A DNA stretch of 64,000 bases from an uncultured bacterium (GCA_963980225.1 CAXBYW010000002.1:39502-103501); one strand, 5' to 3'; positions 1,116-19,201 are shown, numbered from the stretch's first letter. Numbers and translations are program-made. Notes: generated from the letters alone by a model not told the origin.

Positions 1116-1448
1116 ATTTGCTCTCTAAGTATATCAGTTGAGTAAGTTCTAAAACGAACCAGAACACCTGATATATTCAGGTCATGAAAAAATATACACA
1201 GATTACTACCCACCTATTGACTTATAAATTGGTGGCGTATGGGTAACCACTGTTAAAAGAGGGTATTTTTAGATTCAAAGGACTTAAGAAGTTGAGATTT
1301 GAGTTACAATCTATTACTAATTACACCAAGTGTTCTGGTTGAGACTAGAATTCGCAAGCGTGTTATACTATGAGAGTAAATGAAACAACACGGGACAGTT
1401 AGTTTCGATGGAGGAATTTTTCCCTCTGCAAAAAGAGGTGGGAGATTA

Positions 1449-1474
1449 GGCCGCGTAAAAGGCGGTCTTTTTTT
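1449..1474 (+). terminator. rho-independent terminator-like hairpin plus T7 run
   Basis: aggccgcg-taaaa-ggcggtc stem followed by ttttttt. Confidence 0.4.
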
Positions 1475-1552
1475 GTGTTGGTATAGACTATCCTCTTCCT
1501 ATTATGTCTTATAGCTTGACAAATGGTATTTAGTAATTTAATATAGGTTTAT

Positions 1553-3292
1553 ATGAGTGAAATAGAAAAAAATAGAAGAGAGTTCGAGAATAGAAATAAA
1601 GAGTTTAGCAGACAAGATTTTTTGAATCTGTTGAAGGTTGTTGGTGCGGCTACAGTATTGACAGCTTGTGGTTTAGAGATAGATGGGAATACTCCTCAGG
1701 TTGAGCTTGATGAGTCTTTAAATGAACCGGTAGCTACAGAAGTAGCGCCTAGGGCGTCTTTTTCAGCTGAAATCAAGGAGAATGAAGATTTTGATGTTGC
1801 CCAATTTAGAACTGAGACAGGGGTTGAGTTAACAGATGAACAGATTGTTTCATTTGTGGTTGAAGTTGAGGGGGTAGATTTTGATTTTGTTGCCTTACCG
1901 GTAGTATTAGATGCAGAAGGGAAGATTGCAAGTGAAGAGAAGTTGTTTTTTCAGATGGGATCCTCTTGGGAAAGTTTGTTTAAAGGAGAGGTTGAGTCGG
2001 GAGATTTAGTTGTATGGCAAACACTACCAGATATTAGTGGTGAAGGAGGAGAGCCTGTGTTTTGGTATCCAGCTACAGAAGAAGGTTGGCAGTTACCAGA
2101 ATCAGGTATGGCTGCTTTTTCACCACCAACTAAGATGGAAGAAATGATACCGAACTACACAAGAAATCTTGATGGAGGAATCTATATTGATAGAGAAGCT
2201 TTTCCGGAGGGTATGAGGAGAGCATTGTTTTCTTTAACTCCGGTGGAGTGGGAAGGAATAGCACGCTTGGAAGAGCTTAGGTTGAGATTGGGAAATGTAG
2301 TCAGTGTAAAGATAATTGATGATAAGAATATGTTGATGTACAAGAGTGAGGTTGTGGGTGAGTTAATCGGAGAGAATGAGATAGGTATAGAGAGGGATGG
2401 TGAAATAATAAGCGTGTTTGATAACAGTTTGGAGCTTGGAGAAGATAACAGCCTGTTGTCTATTAATAAGGAAAGAACCGAGGAGATGGGTAAGGATTGG
2501 GTAGAGTGGGTATGGACAAAAGATGGAGAGAGATTGGAGGTACCTGAGCCAGTAGTAGGACTACCTGAGACCTTAGAAGAGGCTCGAGTGATTAATGAAA
2601 ATATCCTTGATTTTTATATGCCCAAGCTTACGGCTGCGGAGAAGGCGTATCTAGATGAGGTTGGGTGGGGAAGTAATAATATCTTTTTATCTAAGCCTGA
2701 TTATTATATTCCCGGTATTCCTTTTTATACCAGGGATATCCGTATAAGTACCAATGAGGACTCGGTACTTGAAGGTCAAGAAGATTTGCTGATTGTGGGA
2801 TTAACGAAGGTGCTCTTAAGTGAAGGGACGGAGCTATTGATGTACAGCGTTCCTGGTAAGGCAAGAGAAAGTAGCTTTGCTCAGTATGGTGGGGAAAATC
2901 TGGTTTTACATTTTGCATATAGTTTTGATGCATTTATAGAAAATTCAAGAAAAATGCATTCTGGAGTGATAAATGAAGGTTATTACAATGATCATTATGA
3001 ACCTGCATCTGTTTTAGCTCAGATGAATGATGGTTTGAAGTTTTCTACTATTAGGACGTTTTTTTCTACTAACCAAGAAGGTGTTAGAGGAGCAAGTCCG
3101 GAAGATAGGGATTCTTCTCAGTGGAACTACATTACCAGGTTCCTTGATGAGATGAATGAGGAGATAAATTTTAGTTACATATATGATAAGGAGATATATT
3201 ATCCACAAGGAGATATAGACGTTACAAGAGAGCAGATAGAAGGAATGCAGGAGATGATGTGGCCTGTAGTTTTTGTGAAGGCGGGTAAGTAG
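1553..3292 (+). CDS. acidic secreted lipoprotein, hypothetical
   Basis: N-terminal signal with lipobox LTAC (VLTACGL). Upstream TTGACA-N17-TAATAT promoter-like sequence. Highly acidic (D/E-rich) body. No enzyme motif recognised. Confidence 0.5.
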   Translation: MSEIEKNRREFENRNKEFSRQDFLNLLKVVGAATVLTACGLEIDGNTPQVELDESLNEPVATEVAPRASFSAEIKENEDFDVAQFRTETGVELTDEQIVSFVVEVEGVDFDFVALPVVLDAEGKIASEEKLFFQMGSSWESLFKGEVESGDLVVWQTLPDISGEGGEPVFWYPATEEGWQLPESGMAAFSPPTKMEEMIPNYTRNLDGGIYIDREAFPEGMRRALFSLTPVEWEGIARLEELRLRLGNVVSVKIIDDKNMLMYKSEVVGELIGENEIGIERDGEIISVFDNSLELGEDNSLLSINKERTEEMGKDWVEWVWTKDGERLEVPEPVVGLPETLEEARVINENILDFYMPKLTAAEKAYLDEVGWGSNNIFLSKPDYYIPGIPFYTRDIRISTNEDSVLEGQEDLLIVGLTKVLLSEGTELLMYSVPGKARESSFAQYGGENLVLHFAYSFDAFIENSRKMHSGVINEGYYNDHYEPASVLAQMNDGLKFSTIRTFFSTNQEGVRGASPEDRDSSQWNYITRFLDEMNEEINFSYIYDKEIYYPQGDIDVTREQIEGMQEMMWPVVFVKAGK

Positions 3293-3347
3293 GGGGAAGC
3301 ATATTTTTGGTGTTGCTGTATGGTGGGGATTTGTATAACATGGTGTT

Positions 3348-3824
3348 ATGACTGGTATGAAGAAGTATTGGTGGATTTTACTTGTGATTTTGGTGGTGTC
3401 TTTCTTGGTGGTTGGCTGGTCTTATTATATGAAGAAGAATAAATGGAAAACAGATGAGGGGTTGGTAAGGAGGATTCAGAACTTAACACCAGGGGAGATG
3501 TGGGTAAGGGTGCGTGAGTGGAATGACAAAGACCTGATACTTTCTTTCTGGGATGAGGTTAGTGGTGATACGGGTGAAATGAGAATAGACTTTCAAAAAA
3601 CTGTGGTTGTGGTGGGGGTGGTAGATAATGAGCGTGGTGAAATCCGCCAGGAACTATTGGTGAGTATGGCATCTCCATATTGGGAAAAAGCTTTTTGTCC
3701 AGAAGATTTTGTGACTTTTGAACTTAAGGGTTCTACTTATGTTTCAAAGAAGAGTGTTGCAGAGTTTACTAGTGAAGACGTAGAGAAAATTACAAACTTT
3801 GGCCCATCTAGATGCAGAAATTAA
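3348..3824 (+). CDS. hypothetical membrane-anchored protein
   Basis: Single N-terminal TM helix (WWILLVILVVSFLVVGW). Overlaps start of the downstream cysteine-rich gene by 13 nt, suggesting co-transcription. Confidence 0.4.
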   Translation: MTGMKKYWWILLVILVVSFLVVGWSYYMKKNKWKTDEGLVRRIQNLTPGEMWVRVREWNDKDLILSFWDEVSGDTGEMRIDFQKTVVVVGVVDNERGEIRQELLVSMASPYWEKAFCPEDFVTFELKGSTYVSKKSVAEFTSEDVEKITNFGPSRCRN

Positions 3825-6103
3825 AATTTATTATTGTCATTTTGGTGGTTGGTGTTCTTGGAAGCCTGATACGTCCCACTCCAGTGGAAGGGGCATTTCC
3901 TTGTGAAGACGTAGGTTATCAGTGTGGTGTGAATTCCCCCAATTGTTGGGATGAGTATTGTTCTTCTAGTTGTGGTGATGGTTGTTCCTTTGATTCTTGT
4001 TCTGGGGGGACGTGTAATTCATATTGTGACTGGAATAATTGCCCCGATGGTTGTAGATATCCGACAACTTCAGGTGGGGTGTGTAATGAGTGTACGGCGT
4101 ATTGTGATTCTAGTTGTGCTTATGGTTGTTCTTCTGAGTCTTGCTCTGGGGGTACATGCAACACACCTTCTTCTTGTGATGATTATTGCTGGAGTGGTTG
4201 TGCTTATGGTTGTTCTTCTGAAGACTGTGATGGTGGAGTGTGTAATTCGTCACCCACACCCACATCCACACCTACACCTACAAATGCTCCTGAGATTTGT
4301 AGTATCGACGAACTTACTTGTATTGATGGATATGAATATATATGTAGTGCGGATAGGACAGACTGGGATTATTTGAGAGCTTGTGCTTACGGTTGTGATA
4401 CTGCTGCCGACGTATGTAGTGTTTCGTCGTATTGTGAGGATGTGAGTTGTGGTGATTGTACTGCGGGTGGTGAGACTGGTTATAGGGTCATGTGTTGGTC
4501 TGATGAGACTCAAGAAGAGTTTCTTTGGGAGTCTTGCATAGCTTTTGATTCTGGCTATACACAGGATCAGTGTGAAACTCGTTTGGCGTCTAATGACCCT
4601 TGTCATGCTGTGAATGATACTTGTGGAGGACTGGCTTCTTGTGTGTTACCTTTGGTTTCACGTATAGATAGTTGTGGTTGGCAGGCGTGTGGTGTTGCTT
4701 GTGAACCACCACCAGTTGATGGAGGTGGTGATCCGGTCTGTGTTGCTAGTTATCCAGTGAAGGCGGTGTTGAGCTTGCCCGTTAGTGGAGGATCTACTGA
4801 TACTTTGAGTGTGAATCTTTCCTGGAGTCCGTCTACCGATTATGGGAATGGTTGTCCACAGAATAACGGTCAGACGGTGTTCTTGGAAGCGGGAGATAGT
4901 AGTCCGGATATTTGGGTGGCTTCTTTGTTTGCTAATGAAGGTTCGTATACAGCAAGTGGATTAGAGGGGAATAAGCAGTATTACTGGAGGGTGATGTCTA
5001 GTAATGGGTCTTTAGACATGTATTCGGATGTATATTCATTTATTACTCCAGGTATAGTTACGGGAACTTTATTTGATGCCTCTGATATTGACAGTTGTGC
5101 TTTAATGGGATCGGCACCAAAAATTTCTGGGTCTCTAGTTAATATTGTGGGAGGGGTAAGTTATGCACCAGTGACGGATGTCTTGGGTGTGTACTCACAG
5201 ATAGTGGGAGCACCAGATAGTTATGTGGTGACGCCGGTGGTGAGTGATCCATACAGTTCTACTCCTAAATTAACTTGCCAGGGAGCATCAGCTGATTTTG
5301 TGGTGGGTGGTCCGGAGACGGTAACCTTAGACTTTGGTTTTTGGAGGATTTATGGTGGTTGGTGGCAGGCCATTGGAGGGGATGTTTATGGTGGTGGGGG
5401 AATAGAGAGTGTTGTTCCGGTCGATGTGCCTGCAAATGAGAGATACTTAATTAAAAATGATGCTAACGGTAATGGAGGACTAGCGCAGTATGGTACTGGA
5501 GGAGTAATTGAGTTGGGTGATGGTGACGGAGTATACGTAAGTGAGAGTGGTTGGGAGGCAGAGAGTGGTTATGGTGGTCAGGATGTTAACTACGAGTACT
5601 ACACGGCCAAGATGAAGGTGTTGGAGAAGACGGTCTGGAGTGGTGTTGGTAAGCCAGTCTACAGTCCTGGTGTTGATGGATATGAGATTTATACATACAC
5701 AGGTGATGCAACGGTTAACTTTGATGTAAGTGGTGGGGAGAGAATGGTGTTTATGATTGACGGAAACGTAACGGTAAGTAGTGATGTGACGGTGGCTTTG
5801 GGGAGTCATTTAACGGTTATCTCTTCTGGAAATATTACCTTTGACAGTAACGTGGGAGAAGTACATGGATGGTGGGTAGCAGACAGGATAGTGATTGAGT
5901 CGACTGGGGACACGGCCACGGAGTTGCAGTTTAAAGGGGAAGGTAGTTTTGTTGGGTGGGATGCTGTCGAGCTTAATAGAGACAGAGGGGTGACTAACAA
6001 TACGGAGCCAGCCGAGGAGTTTACTTACAGGTCTGATTTGATGGTGAATGCTCCAAGAGCACTAAAGTTTTCTAGATACAAGTGGTTGGAGCAAGCGCCG
6101 TAG
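3812..6103 (+). CDS. large cysteine-rich repeat surface protein with PT linker, FN3-like and parallel beta-helix-like C-terminal region
   Basis: Signal/TM at N-terminus. About 300 aa with very high Cys content in repeated CxxxCxYGCSSExCxGGxCN units. PTPTSTPTPT linker. W...YYWRV FN3-like segment. C-terminal GNVTVSSDVTVALGSHLTVISSGNITFDSNVG beta-helix-like repeats. Confidence 0.6.
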   Translation: MQKLKFIIVILVVGVLGSLIRPTPVEGAFPCEDVGYQCGVNSPNCWDEYCSSSCGDGCSFDSCSGGTCNSYCDWNNCPDGCRYPTTSGGVCNECTAYCDSSCAYGCSSESCSGGTCNTPSSCDDYCWSGCAYGCSSEDCDGGVCNSSPTPTSTPTPTNAPEICSIDELTCIDGYEYICSADRTDWDYLRACAYGCDTAADVCSVSSYCEDVSCGDCTAGGETGYRVMCWSDETQEEFLWESCIAFDSGYTQDQCETRLASNDPCHAVNDTCGGLASCVLPLVSRIDSCGWQACGVACEPPPVDGGGDPVCVASYPVKAVLSLPVSGGSTDTLSVNLSWSPSTDYGNGCPQNNGQTVFLEAGDSSPDIWVASLFANEGSYTASGLEGNKQYYWRVMSSNGSLDMYSDVYSFITPGIVTGTLFDASDIDSCALMGSAPKISGSLVNIVGGVSYAPVTDVLGVYSQIVGAPDSYVVTPVVSDPYSSTPKLTCQGASADFVVGGPETVTLDFGFWRIYGGWWQAIGGDVYGGGGIESVVPVDVPANERYLIKNDANGNGGLAQYGTGGVIELGDGDGVYVSESGWEAESGYGGQDVNYEYYTAKMKVLEKTVWSGVGKPVYSPGVDGYEIYTYTGDATVNFDVSGGERMVFMIDGNVTVSSDVTVALGSHLTVISSGNITFDSNVGEVHGWWVADRIVIESTGDTATELQFKGEGSFVGWDAVELNRDRGVTNNTEPAEEFTYRSDLMVNAPRALKFSRYKWLEQAP

Positions 6104-9821: not shown

Positions 9822-11717
9822 TTACTGTGAAAGTTGTTCCAAGCGAAAGAGAGCTTCCTGATAGTTTGATTTTAGTTCGAGTGCTTTTTGATAACTTAGA
9901 ATAGCCAGGTCTTTTTGGTTGGTGTTTTGATAGAGAAGAGCGATGTTAAAAAGAAGTTTTGGATCTGTAGGAGCCAAGATTGAAGCTTGAAGAAGAGTGT
10001 TTAAAGCTGATTGTTGGTACTTAGTGTCTACGTTTGCAAGATAGATCTCGACTCTGGCTTTAGACTTTAGTAAGTTTAGGTTATAAGGACTCATGTCTAC
10101 TGCTTGGGTAGCGTGCTCTAGAGCTTGTTCTTGGTACTGTTTTTGTATGTTTTGAGCTGATTCAGGTAGGTTTTCCAGTTGGAGGAATATGGTGGCAGCA
10201 GCCTTGGACTCTTGTTCTGCTAGTTTGGCTAAGAATAGGGGCTGTTTTGGTTGGAGGTTGACGGCAGTCTCTAGTAGTTTTAGAGCAGACTGGTTTTGGC
10301 CGGCGGTGATGTGGGCCTTGCCCGATTGGTAGTTAAGATCGGCTCTAAAAGTGTTTACGAGAGAAGTTAGAAAATAGATGGCGAGGATAATGGTAGTGAT
10401 GTTTAAGACTGATGGGATAATGGGTAACTTGAAGTCTTTTGTTTTTGGTTTGTCGTCGGTTAGGACAAAGTTTAGGGCAGGCAGGAGAAAGAAAAGTAGA
10501 GCTACAGCGACAACAGAGAAGCCAAAGAAGTTGGTAAACAGGATGCTTAACCAGCCAATGAAGAGGGCGGCTGAGATGTTTGAAGTAGGGCCTTTTAACC
10601 ACCATTTTGTGATCCAGATAATGAGTAAAAGATAGGAACCTATACCTAAGAGTCCGGTATTAGCAAAGAAGTTTAGGTACTCATTGTGAGCTTTGTTGTA
10701 GAGAAAGTCCCATTCCGACAACAGGTTGTGTTCTGCTGGTCTTTCCCAGTAATAGGAGTAGGCAAAGGTTTCTGGTCCTGTGCCTAAAATGGGGTGTTTT
10801 TTACCCAAGGTTAGAGCACCTTGCCAGACGACACGGCGAATGGTCATGGAGTCAGAACCACCGTTGCCTCGCGCATCAAGGTCTTTTAGGACTAGTTCTT
10901 TGGTGGTGGAGTGGAAAGGATTGATTTGGTTTAAGGAGTTAAGTGACTGGGGTTTCAAGATTAAAAAAGTTGCTAATAGAATGGCAAGTGAGAGCAGTAG
11001 TTTGCCTTTGGATTTGACTTTGTAGATGGTGATTAATACAAGGACGATGAGAAGTGTAGCGATACCGGACTGAGATTTGGTGAAGATGATACTGGTGATG
11101 ATAAGAAGAGATAGAAGTAAGTGTGCAGGTTTTTTGTTTTTTAAGAACAGGAGTATGGGGAGTGGGAGAATGGCTACTAGGTAAGCAGATAACCAGTTGG
11201 GTTGACCTAACGTAGAGAATACTCTTGACTGAACATCTTGGACCCAGAGGGTCTTGTCTATACCAAAGTGTTCTAGTACTGCATAGGTTGAGATTAAGCC
11301 AGTGGAAAGAAATATGGTGTTTAAGTAGGAGAGAACATAGGTCTTTTTAGATTTGCCGTCTTTAGGTGAGGAAGATATGAATATATAGAAGAGCAGAATA
11401 TAGGAGATAGTAGAGGCTAAGCCACCGTGGAATCTACTATAGTAGCCCCAGAGACTGGTGTGGGGGTCGATAGAGAAGATGGTAGACAGTATTTGGACAA
11501 GTATAAACAAGAGAATGGGGATGTCTAGTGGAGTACGGCGAATGGTGATTTTTTTTGATTTGATCCAGTCTAGAATTTGAACTGTGGTAATCAATATGGT
11601 AACTCCATAAACAAAAAGCATCTTAGGAAACTCGAAGACTTCACTGGTCTGGGGCCAGAGAAGTAGAGGTGTAAAGAAGAATAGGGTACGAAACAAAAAA
11701 GAGATCAGCTGATTCAT
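9822..11717 (-). CDS. O-antigen ligase/polymerase-like polytopic membrane protein with C-terminal TPR repeats (start reassigned to internal Met; long ORF extends to 11882)
   Basis: 10+ TM helices. Periplasmic loop typical of the Wzy_C/O-antigen ligase family. C-terminal 200 aa are TPR-like (LLETAVNLQPKQP..., YQKALELKSNYQEAL). Conventional start MNQLISF at 11717 avoids overlap with divergent mreB. Confidence 0.6.
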   Translation of the reverse strand: MNQLISFLFRTLFFFTPLLLWPQTSEVFEFPKMLFVYGVTILITTVQILDWIKSKKITIRRTPLDIPILLFILVQILSTIFSIDPHTSLWGYYSRFHGGLASTISYILLFYIFISSSPKDGKSKKTYVLSYLNTIFLSTGLISTYAVLEHFGIDKTLWVQDVQSRVFSTLGQPNWLSAYLVAILPLPILLFLKNKKPAHLLLSLLIITSIIFTKSQSGIATLLIVLVLITIYKVKSKGKLLLSLAILLATFLILKPQSLNSLNQINPFHSTTKELVLKDLDARGNGGSDSMTIRRVVWQGALTLGKKHPILGTGPETFAYSYYWERPAEHNLLSEWDFLYNKAHNEYLNFFANTGLLGIGSYLLLIIWITKWWLKGPTSNISAALFIGWLSILFTNFFGFSVVAVALLFFLLPALNFVLTDDKPKTKDFKLPIIPSVLNITTIILAIYFLTSLVNTFRADLNYQSGKAHITAGQNQSALKLLETAVNLQPKQPLFLAKLAEQESKAAATIFLQLENLPESAQNIQKQYQEQALEHATQAVDMSPYNLNLLKSKARVEIYLANVDTKYQQSALNTLLQASILAPTDPKLLFNIALLYQNTNQKDLAILSYQKALELKSNYQEALFRLEQLSQ

Positions 11718-11756
11718 AAGCGTAAGTTTATCATGAACATGGTATGATCTTTTACA

Positions 11757-12821
11757 ATGCTTGAAAAAATTTGGCGGATGACTACTTTGGATGTGGGGAT
11801 TGACCTGGGGACAGCTAATACGGTGGTGCATGTTAGAGGTAAAGGGATCGTGATTAGACAACCATCGGTGGTGGCAAGACATAAAAAAACTGGAGAGATA
11901 CTGGCTATTGGAGAAGAGGCCAGGAAGATGTTGGGCAAGAATCCTGCTAGCATAGAGGTGATAAGGCCTTTAAGGGATGGAGTGATAGCTGACTTTGATG
12001 CAACCGAGGCGATGCTTAAGCATTATATAGTTCAAGTACATGAGACATATAAGGGATTGGGGTTTAAGATGCCAAGGCCTAGGGTGGTAGTGGGGATTCC
12101 ATCTGGAGTAACAGAAGTAGAAAGAAGAGCGGTTTATGAGGCGGCCATAACGGCTGGAGCTAGAAAGGTGTTTTTGATTGAAGAACCTATGGCGGCGGCT
12201 ATCGGAGCAGGCATGCCTGTCAGTAAGGCTCAGGGACAGATGGTTATAGATATTGGAGGAGGAACTACAGAGATTGGGGTTATCTCCTTAGGAGGGTTAG
12301 TGTTGAACAAGTCATTGAGAGTTGCGGGAGACGAGTTGACTGAGGCGGTAATGTCGTTTGTTAGATTGAAACATAGTTTGCTTTTGGGTGAGAGTACAGC
12401 GGAGTCGGTCAAGTTAGCTGTGGGTTCTGCTTTCGAGTTAAAGTCAGAAGCAGATGGTAAACAGTTGCAGGTGGTGGTAAGAGGTAGAAGTTTAAATGAT
12501 GGTCTGCCAAAGTCTTTGAGACTTGGAAGTGTGGAGATTAGAGAAGCATTGATGCCGGTAATTAATACTATTTTGGTAGAGATTGCCCAGATTATTGAGG
12601 AGACACCACCGGATCTAGTAGCGGACATCTTGGAAAAAGGAGCTGTTATGGCTGGTGGAGGATCTTTGATTAGAGGAATTGACAAGTTAATATCTGAACA
12701 AACCGGCATGCCGGTTTGGATAACAGACAATCCGATGGAAGCAGTAGTAAGAGGGTGTGCTAAGGTTTTGGAAAATGATGGATTACTTAAAAAAGTAAGA
12801 GTGGTAGGGGATTTGGGATAG
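11757..12821 (+). CDS. mreB: rod shape-determining protein MreB
   Basis: DLGTANTVV, GGGTTEIGVISLGG actin-fold motifs. Confidence 0.95.
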   Translation: MLEKIWRMTTLDVGIDLGTANTVVHVRGKGIVIRQPSVVARHKKTGEILAIGEEARKMLGKNPASIEVIRPLRDGVIADFDATEAMLKHYIVQVHETYKGLGFKMPRPRVVVGIPSGVTEVERRAVYEAAITAGARKVFLIEEPMAAAIGAGMPVSKAQGQMVIDIGGGTTEIGVISLGGLVLNKSLRVAGDELTEAVMSFVRLKHSLLLGESTAESVKLAVGSAFELKSEADGKQLQVVVRGRSLNDGLPKSLRLGSVEIREALMPVINTILVEIAQIIEETPPDLVADILEKGAVMAGGGSLIRGIDKLISEQTGMPVWITDNPMEAVVRGCAKVLENDGLLKKVRVVGDLG

Positions 12822-18406: not shown

Positions 18407-19201
18407 TCAGACAGAGATTGGAGCCTTTATGTGTGGATGAGCCTGGTAATCGACTAGTTGAAAGTCTTCGAAAATGAAACGGTCGATGTTTTTGACCTCG
18501 GGAGCGATGAGCATTTTGGGCAATAGGTAGGGGTTTCTTGATAATTGCTCCCTGGCTTGGTTGAAGTGATTGCTGTAAAGGTGAGTATCTCCTAGACTCA
18601 AGATTAAGTCTCCTGGTTCAAGATCAGTGACCTGAGCGACCATCATGGTTAACAAGGCGTAGGAAGCGATGTTAAACGGTAAGCCTAAGAAGACATCTAC
18701 TGACCGTTGAGTCATAAGACAAGAGAGCTTGCCTTCCGCTACATAAAACTGGAACATTAAGTGACATGGAGGCAAGGCCATGTCTTTTAGACTAGAGACG
18801 TTCCAGGCATTGACGATCATGCGAGTGGAGCTTGGCTCGGTCTTGATCAAATGTATAGCGTCGCGAAGTTGGTCATAGGTTTCACCGTGTGGACCTAGCC
18901 AGTTACGCCATTGGCTACCATAGGTAGGACCTAGCTCACCTTGTTCATCTGCCCATTCATTCCATATCCTGACATTGTGCTGGTTTAAGTAGTTGATGTT
19001 GGTGCTGCCTTGGATGAACCAAAGTAGTTCATAAATGACTGATTTTAGATGGACTTTTTTGGTGGTGATCAAGGGAAACCCTTTTTGTAGGTTGAAGCGC
19101 ATCTGATGCCCGAAGATGGAACGTCTACCTGTTCCAGTACGGTCTGGTCTGTCGACTCCGTCCTTTAAGATTTTGTCAATCAATTCTAGATACTGTTTCA
19201 T
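18407..19201 (-). CDS. thyA: thymidylate synthase
   Basis: [15 protein letters not shown]...DRTGTG...RSIFG N-terminus and active-site Cys region ([11 protein letters not shown]). Confidence 0.95.

Follow-up and report, generated by a model that had tools for sequence, protein, structure and literature searches.

We analysed a stretch of 64,000 nucleotides (nt) of DNA from an uncultured bacterium (GCA_963980225.1, CAXBYW010000002.1:39502-103501), which is called the window throughout, and in particular three genes near its start, A, B and C, which code for an acidic lipoprotein, a small membrane protein and a large cysteine (Cys)-rich protein (Table 1). All three genes lie on the + strand, with a 13-nt overlap between B and C; the open reading frame (ORF) call agrees exactly with a preliminary description of the same DNA, which had reported three co-oriented genes of which the last two overlap. 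As shown below, purifying selection acts on A, B and C, which are real genes, and C is a modular protein in which a Cys-dense, variable N-terminus is followed by an FN3 domain, a CnaB/CarboxypepD_reg-like sandwich and a conserved beta-solenoid resembling those of ice-binding proteins (IBP) and ComZ. We read A-B-C as a conserved envelope operon of a Microgenomates-type bacterium (Patescibacteria/candidate phyla radiation, CPR) for a cell-surface stalk protein, and give this reading about an even chance.

Table 1 Features of the A-B-C module, with positions counted from the first letter of the window (aa, amino acids; pI, isoelectric point; TM, transmembrane)
Feature	Position (nt)	Strand	Residues	Remarks
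Operon promoter/operator	1507..1552	+		-35 TTGACA 1516-1521, 17-nt spacer, -10 TAATAT 1539-1544
Gene A, acidic lipoprotein	1553..3292	+		579 aa, pI 4.28
A signal and lipobox	1553-1669		1-39	
A N domain	1670-2248		40-232	
A C domain	2249-3289		233-579	
Gene B, small bitopic membrane protein	3348..3824	+		158 aa
B TM helix	3366-3428		7-27	single N-terminal hydrophobic helix (hydropathy)
Gene C	3812-6103	+		763 aa
C signal peptide	3812..3892	+	1-27	MQKLKFIIVILVVGVLGSLIRPTPVEG, followed by A
C Cys block 1	3893..4249	+	28-146	three full and one partial six-Cys units of about 23 aa
C Pro/Thr linker	4250..4291	+	147-160	
C Cys block 2	4292..4744	+	161-311	19 Cys at family-conserved positions
C FN3 domain	4745..5047	+	312-412	
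C CarboxypepD_reg/SdrD-B/CnaB-like beta-sandwich	5048..5326	+	413-505	invariant Cys pair C429/C489
C C-terminal beta-solenoid and stop	5327..6103	+	506-763	polar cap RDRG..NNT.PAE.F..R.DL..NAP

Promoter region and the products of A and B

The operon is preceded by a sigma-70-like promoter, which scores 10/12 in a consensus scan. The ATG of A lies only 8 nt past the -10 box, so the transcript of A would be leaderless or nearly so. About 48 nt, comprising the -35 box, the spacer, the -10 box and the start codon of A, are invariant among the window (1507-1555) and two related loci, L003 (about 9956-10003) and L001 (7323-7373), and this invariance contrasts with the 41-66% identity of the A proteins across the same three loci. 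That the spacer is conserved hints at an operator in addition to the promoter, and the whole arrangement points to an operon transcript that is conserved, possibly regulated and nearly leaderless. Further upstream on the + strand, a non-coding-looking element (1356-1480) overlaps a 44-aa ORF (1380-1514) and terminates in a GC-rich hairpin with a T-run (1448-1475; folding z-score -2.45). It is about 90% identical in L003 and partially conserved in L001, and no Rfam family was matched, the best candidates, GcvB (E 0.16) and Trp_leader, being far under their gathering scores. Possible identities for this element are a small RNA and the terminator of a very short gene upstream.

The product of A has the lipobox V-L-T-A-C39, whose Cys is invariant in 7/7 homologues, as in bacterial lipoproteins. 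Together with C (pI 4.05), it is one of the two most acidic among the 58 proteins of the window (median pI 7.4), which bears out the earlier view of a strongly acidic lipoprotein; nothing was found in support of the cation binding that had been proposed for it as a possibility. The n-region of the signal is Tat (twin-arginine translocation)-like, with S-R-Q-D-F-L-N in the window, D-R-K-D-F-L-N in L003 and the canonical S-R-R-D-F-L-K in L001. Since A of the window departs from the canonical S/T-R-R-x-F-L-K, its signal looks Tat-derived but degenerate. Using Pfam, NCBIfam and a profile search of PDB sequences, no relative of A was obtained.

B consists of a single N-terminal TM helix and a C-terminal domain of about 130 aa with a Cys pair at residues 117 and 156, and nothing significant was found for it in a PDB sequence search or in Pfam/NCBIfam. 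A gene of the same architecture lies directly upstream of C homologues in L008, L010, L015, L016 and L018 and often overlaps C, in L008 by 13 nt as in the window, and in L012 it sits upstream of the A-like gene instead. These B-like proteins of distant loci have 141-205 aa and one N-terminal TM helix. A Cys pair is common to those of four loci, one Cys being mid-domain and the other 2-10 residues before the C-terminus, which suggests an extracytoplasmic disulfide.

Architecture of protein C

C begins with a Sec-type signal. Homologues share its n-, h- and c-regions, and the cleavage region, V-[EQ]-[GA] before the site and A after it, is kept. Thus all three products carry export or membrane signals (a lipoprotein signal in A, a signal-anchor in B and a Sec signal in C), as the preliminary description had expected. 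Two other ways of placing C at the surface were considered and rejected. As a type IV pilin or ComZ-like minor pilin, C would need a class III site, in which G is followed across the cleavage point by F/M-x-x-x-E, and its N-terminus, MQKLKFIIVILVVGVLGSLIRPTPVEG cleaved before A, has none. As a sortase-anchored LPXTG protein it would need a C-terminal sorting signal made up of LPXTG, a hydrophobic stretch and a positive tail; the C-terminus reads ...KFSRYKWLEQAP, no hydrophobic segment exists outside the N-terminal signal, and the NCBIfam LPXTG_anchor model did not match C.

The region after the signal is extraordinarily rich in Cys. C has 46 Cys in total (6.0%, compared with a median of 0.48% over the 58 window proteins), and 42 of them fall within residues 31-310 (15% Cys), as described earlier for a region of about 300 aa. 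The repeated Cys units reported there are present as well, although not as a uniform array: three full units of the form C-x3/4-C-x3-C-x3-C-x4-C-x4-C occupy residues 45-68, 94-116 and 122-144, and a partial unit residues 72-91. Residues 71-93 (nt 4022-4090) form a 23-aa indel unit that is missing from the L003 haplotype, and the relative P0001 has further insertions; the number of Cys units thus differs between relatives, a variability that had been proposed for checking. The Pro/Thr linker and the second Cys-rich block also lie where expected, and the DNA of the linker contains a 6-nt tandem repeat, CACCCA x5.3 at 4251-4282 (TRF). The Cys count of C is even, many Cys columns are invariant across the family, and CxC and CC clusters are absent from the Cys region, in which His is very rare and Gly, Tyr and Trp stand between the Cys. 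No Pfam or PDB sequence match and no fold match were found for it. The 23-aa unit (about 25% Cys) is confined to the closer relatives of the window and is without a database model, as far as the sequence comparisons go. Of the disulfide-knot or metal-binding repeat proposed earlier, no fold was found; C lacks the characters of metallothioneins (intracellular, CxC/CxxC, few aromatics), and metal binding is unlikely.

The last Cys module, in block 2, aligns with TSP1-like modules of relatives. TSP1 matches of relatives were sub-threshold (P0004, 22.8 bits against a cutoff of 23.8; P0084, 18.4 against 41), and TSP_1 and TSP1_ADAMTS of Pfam did not match C of the window. These TSP1-like modules (W..W..C...CGGG.Q.R) lie just before FN3 in P0004 (residues 143-188), P0084 (255-280) and L001 (9503-11317). 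Such repeats are unusual in bacteria. Compared with TSP1, EGF-, furin- and TNFR-like repeats, which are also tandem short extracellular modules with about six Cys each, the 23-aa unit of C is denser in Cys and matches no Pfam or PDB family.

The FN3-like domain of the preliminary description was recovered through the family profile, positions 273-376 of which match proteins with 10-15 copies of Pfam fn3. The direct match in the window is only weak: searched against Pfam, the FN3 segment gave only a sub-threshold Pur_ac_phosph_N hit (E 0.0066 in C of the window, 1.8e-5 in P0001). With C as a whole, too, no match in Pfam or NCBIfam was significant. Between FN3 and the solenoid sits a beta-sandwich (residues 413-505) which had been overlooked before. 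It is similar in fold and profile to CarboxypepD_reg, SdrD_B and CnaB-type domains, and Pfam finds CarboxypepD_reg or SdrD_B in relatives of C. With FN3, a sandwich of the CnaB/SdrD-B-like kind and a beta-solenoid, the domains of C match the adhesin-type architecture claimed earlier.

In an AlphaFold2 model with a pLDDT (predicted local distance difference test) of 81.8, the C-terminal beta-solenoid reached 84-97 in the coil stack, with a helix of 7 residues beside the solenoid and poorly modelled first coils, and its polar C-terminal cap is strongly conserved. In structure comparison, it resembles the DUF3494 ice-binding proteins and the solenoid of ComZ. The sole sequence-level link is to DUF7305 (PF23981): C of the window scores 16.4 bits as a whole and 18.5 as a C-terminal fragment, below the gathering score of 27, and 2/17 relatives match at E<=0.1 (best 7.7e-7), which suggests that the solenoid is distantly related to DUF7305. 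Sequence searches of the PDB with the C-terminal profile and with the Cys-rich region were empty or at chance level (E>=0.69). From the fold and family matches, the term beta-helix used earlier for the C-terminus is right, and the likeness to polysaccharide lyases is unsupported, DUF3494 and ComZ being found instead.

Conservation and genomic context of the module

Using the family profile, 1.84 billion representatives were scanned with HMMER, and 6134 matched at E<1e-3 and 443 at E<1e-30. As the latter include FN3-repeat proteins, the sandwich-plus-solenoid module, for which Pfam has no model, is present in at most 443 representative clusters. Apart from multi-FN3 giants, which match at the FN3 positions only, the matches are proteins of 500-1000 aa with the sandwich-plus-solenoid at the C-terminus and variable N-termini that have signal peptides and are mostly Cys-rich. 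When four of the family proteins were scanned against Pfam, no annotated domain was found. By these comparisons, the conserved unit of the C family is the C-terminal sandwich-plus-solenoid module. Hint/bacterial intein-like segments (CF[PL][AP][GE]T...H-N-K/W) were also seen by eye in the variable N-termini of P0086, P0133, P0144 and P0163 and in L015 (6387-9173). In P0033 (L022) and P0084 (L023), single uninterrupted ORFs encode an N-terminal TM helix, a non-Cys domain of 170-240 aa, the Cys-rich region, FN3, the sandwich and the solenoid, and in neither locus is the interval between C and the upstream gene occupied by a separate B gene. With the TM helix N-terminal, those two proteins must have their N-terminus at the membrane and their solenoid at the distal end.

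The order A-B-C is repeated in L001, L003/L004, L005 and L006. Close relatives keep the operon and its promoter, and distant relatives keep the gene order: in distant loci with C about 33-40% identical, a Tat-signal or lipoprotein gene is followed by a small gene with an N-terminal TM helix and then by the C homologue, with upstream and anchor proteins that have no detectable homology to A and B. A gene for DsbA lies directly downstream of C in L001, L002, L003 and L020, and in the P0166 contig and L019 a few genes stand between the two. More widely, a block of the type (DsbA)-7TM_transglut-ATPgrasp_ST-RimK(x1-2)-MnmA recurs near C homologues down to about 40% identity, in seven loci (L001, L002, L003/L004, L019, L020, L021 and the P0166 contig). 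This DsbA/7TM_transglut/ATP-grasp/RimK/MnmA/AspRS block was sought in the window and is absent, glyA being downstream instead. The DsbA-7TM_transglut-ATPgrasp arrangement resembles rloABC, an envelope-stress system of Pseudomonas (PMC11957051).

Two haplotypes of the module occur in public assemblies, the window type and the L003 type, between which the proteins are 66% (A), 87% (B) and 84% (C) identical. A metagenome scan for near strain variants gave the L003 contig and one C-terminal relative, and nothing else. Comparing the two haplotypes by the method of Nei-Gojobori, the ratio of nonsynonymous to synonymous substitution rates (dN/dS) was 0.22-0.25 for A, 0.18 for the B ectodomain and 0.07-0.33 over the segments of C, with 0.15-0.21 for the Cys blocks and 0.07, the strongest constraint, for the solenoid. 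From these values, all three genes are functional and constrained, and the most constrained and conserved part of C is the C-terminal module, not the Cys repeats. Neither outcome that the preliminary description had named against itself, a known intracellular metal-binding fold without a secretion signal or loss or decay of the gene in close relatives without synteny, was found; in relatives, the module keeps its synteny and is subject to purifying selection. When the window (1358-6103) was compared with L003, L005 and L006, two contigs were mosaic. L005 is L003-type to window position ~3377 and then 100% window-type, with an AspRS flank joined to a glyA flank, and L006 is 100% window-type to ~2646 and then 100% L003-type. 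These mosaics reflect either recombination inside the module or assembly chimeras switching at conserved stretches.

The named relatives belong to Candidatus Collierbacteria, Candidatus Woesebacteria and "Patescibacteria group bacterium" (Patescibacteria/Microgenomates). The reduced-genome organism assumed earlier fits these CPR names, with the support coming through the relatives and not through a classification of the window. In the window, A and C are each single-copy, and the flanking genes are housekeeping genes: M50 peptidase, glyA, fmt, def, a Wzy_C/TPR protein and an MreB-like protein, the last by its N-terminal sequence only. The Wzy_C/TPR gene (9822-11882, - strand) encodes a 686-aa membrane protein with a Wzy_C (O-antigen ligase-type) domain and C-terminal TPR repeats, and is a further envelope-related gene about 4 kb off the A-B-C module.

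The base composition of the window was also observed to be extremely skewed. On the + strand, the GC skew, (G-C)/(G+C), is +0.33 to +0.53 in 2-kb bins to about 40 kb and 0.02-0.41 afterwards. Minus-strand genes to about 35 kb have a coding-strand skew mostly of -0.25 to -0.45, with an exception at 18407-19201 (-0.14), and because of these negative values the skew is a property of the strand and not of coding. In related loci, the skew is 0.34-0.52 (L001-L007) and, in the Collierbacteria/Woesebacteria loci, mostly 0.18-0.27 with three negative values (-0.13 to -0.17). Typical bacterial skews are far below those of the window and its relatives.

Proposed mechanism, rival explanations and significance

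We propose that C is tethered to the membrane, forms a stalk stiffened by disulfides and holds at its far end a solenoid that binds surfaces, in the manner of stalk-and-tip adhesins, a reading that in our judgement could fall either way with about equal probability. In this model, C would be exported by Sec, after which its 46 Cys would be oxidised to disulfides. The enzyme would probably be an oxidoreductase of the DsbA type, whose gene follows shortly after C in most relatives, and the oxidised N-terminal ~280 aa of C would become a rigid spacer of variable length. B, which would be translationally coupled to C via the overlap of the two genes, would tether the N-terminal end of C to the membrane, and lipoprotein A may serve as an additional membrane-bound partner. 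FN3 and the sandwich would lengthen the stalk, and the beta-solenoid with its conserved polar cap would be the distal functional end, binding some conserved surface outside the cell. The most plausible target would be a host cell or particle that presents a regular polymer or lattice. The host attachment put forward in the preliminary description is likewise a predicted role. The arrangement of B and A as tether, stalk and distal solenoid is drawn from the fusions P0033 and P0084, the presumed translational coupling of B and C, the lack of a C-terminal anchor motif in C (no LPXTG and no TM segment), the conserved polar cap, and the parallels to ComZ and DUF3494 proteins. ComZ has been argued to sit at the pilus tip (PMC6561018), and hundreds of bacteria not associated with ice have DUF3494 domains, which may serve there to bind other surfaces (PMC11645318).

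Several results weigh against this model, the whole of which is computational and the stalk role predicted. The Cys-rich region was poorly modelled by AlphaFold2 (pLDDT 47; 30-50 in block 1 and 57-73 in residues ~158-257) and has no fold match, which is why a rigid disulfide stalk is something we infer. In the solenoid, the highly conserved Gly-rich residues 513-592 were modelled at a pLDDT of 51-68 only, and the fold match is to a generic solenoid class with weak Foldseek E values (3e-3 to 4e-2); Pfam DUF3494 was unmatched in C of the window (E<=1) and in 17 family members (E<=0.1). For the tether, the B-like proteins are nearly without sequence similarity across loci, with the exception of L008B-L015B (E 3e-5) and, marginally, L012B-P0033N (E 0.016), and homology to B of the window could not be demonstrated for the B-like N-termini of the fusion proteins. 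In addition, B of the window has more Lys/Arg after the TM helix than before it, and this charge distribution, atypical for an inside N-terminus under the positive-inside rule, weakly argues for the opposite orientation. Finally, no DsbA gene is present in the 64-kb window.

Among other explanations, the reverse topology deserves attention, in which the C-terminal sandwich-plus-solenoid would be a cell-proximal docking or assembly part and the variable Cys-rich N-terminus an exposed, ligand-binding and diversifying head. Variable parts of proteins are usually the exposed ones, and the N-terminal region does vary in length, unit number and content (the 23-aa indel, and Hint-like segments in some relatives), with a C-terminal module and last residues that are highly conserved, as expected for contact with the cell's own machinery. 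However, the TM helix of the fusions is at the N-terminus, which leaves the solenoid distal, C has no LPXTG or TM anchor at its C-terminus, and the dN/dS of the Cys blocks is that of purifying and not diversifying selection; we consider this topology unlikely, if still deserving of some weight. Another explanation is a structural envelope or matrix protein with no foreign target, in which solenoids would stack, for example end to end or side by side, so that C self-assembles into an S-layer-like coat or an extracellular fibre. The stalk-like modules and variable N-terminus of C suit a projecting protein better than a lattice, no sign of oligomerisation appeared in the analysis, and the Cys content of C is extreme, S-layer proteins being typically Cys-poor. 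Although C shares its strong acidity with many S-layer proteins, has a single gene copy in the window, in a housekeeping context, and has a strong conserved promoter that suggests high expression, we hold such a matrix to be improbable. It is also possible, though we rate it a little lower again, that C is a partner or substrate of the 7TM inactive-transglutaminase/ATP-grasp/RimK-like (Rlo-like) envelope system, with which it would make up a single functional unit in relatives, and that the module has moved away from it in the window genome. C homologues adjoin the block or lie close upstream of it in the seven loci, to about 40% identity (in L021 directly, with no DsbA between), and rloABC of Pseudomonas is an envelope-stress system of like type (PMC11957051). 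On the other hand, the same block contains the housekeeping genes AspRS and MnmA, so the association may be plain colinearity, toxin-antitoxin, NUDIX and other genes intervene between C and the block in two loci, and the window carries the module without the block.

A different use of the Cys is envisaged if the Cys region stays reduced in anoxic habitats and sequesters metals or Fe-S like a metallothionein, with A binding cations. The 15% Cys over 280 aa, the acidity of A and C and the absence of an assignable fold would suit this, but C has a signal peptide, its even number of Cys at invariant positions is interspersed with Gly and aromatics, CxC/CC clusters and His are missing or nearly so, DsbA is adjacent in relatives, and TSP1-like disulfide modules take the same position in some of them. 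Metal binding by the Cys-rich region is therefore unlikely, and we give this explanation as a whole very little credence. The structural likeness of the solenoid might further be taken to mean a true ice-binding or antifreeze protein of the DUF3494 family, which we regard as scarcely credible: the Pfam model is unmatched in C and its 17 relatives, the helix beside the solenoid has only 7 residues, and ComZ of a thermophile has the same fold and no ice role (PMC6561018).

When compared with known systems, the stalk-and-tip reading of C finds several partial parallels. The "ice adhesin" SfIBP_1 of Shewanella frigidimarina (PDB 6bg8) combines, judging by the title of this PDB entry and a reference given in PMC11645318, tandem beta-sandwiches with a DUF3494 domain, which is like the stalk-plus-solenoid logic of C. 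Unlike DUF3494/IBP-1 proteins, C has no Pfam DUF3494 match, a short flanking helix and poorly modelled first coils, it has a Cys-rich spacer and a three-gene operon, and there is no sign of a cold habitat or of ice binding. The solenoid of ComZ, a competence-associated tip pilin of Thermus thermophilus (PDB 6qvi), was proposed to be distal on an appendage and to meet an external ligand, as we suggest for C; however, ComZ is type IV pilin-like, with the solenoid inserted in the pilin fold and DNA as the ligand, and C has a Sec signal and no pilin N-terminus (PMC6561018). No pilus genes were found among the neighbours examined around C. Gram-positive stalk adhesins and pilins (SdrD, UafA, SpaA and BcpA) share with C the CnaB/SdrD-B and FN3-type domains, C being likewise acidic and secreted with FN3 before the sandwich, but C lacks LPXTG and has its conserved module at the C-terminus and its variable part at the N-terminus. 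A sortase gene was found near one relative only (L023). DUF7305, to which the solenoid is linked below threshold, is itself an uncharacterised predicted beta-helix domain. In these comparisons, C did not qualify as a DUF3494 protein by sequence, nor as a type IV pilin, an LPXTG protein, a metallothionein or a TSP1 protein, and it belongs with FN3 and CarboxypepD_reg/CnaB only at the level of the superfamily. The operon is built from familiar adhesin-type parts and is not surprising in kind. In its most specific form, our model would make A, B and C the host-attachment organelle long sought in Microgenomates-type CPR, a non-pilus, sortase-independent fibre of a new kind, in which stacked 23-aa triple-disulfide units carry an IBP-fold solenoid whose polar cap recognises a host S-layer or wall polymer lattice, with maturation via DsbA and possibly 7TM-transglutaminase/ATP-grasp; in all these details together it is speculative and probably not correct.

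In conclusion, the C family is uncharacterised and apparently CPR-wide, with a conserved operon and a new Cys-dense repeat, and a literature search yielded no paper that describes it or DUF7305. The family adds two things that are missing from databases, the sandwich-plus-solenoid C-terminal module and the very Cys-dense 23-aa repeat unit. Even if the function were merely structural, the result would still help to annotate a large family of "hypothetical proteins". Host or surface contact by Microgenomates-type CPR is little known, and existing knowledge concerns mostly type IV pili in other CPR lineages. We believe that the A-B-C operon, with its defined architecture, is a concrete and widely conserved candidate for the surface biology of Microgenomates.

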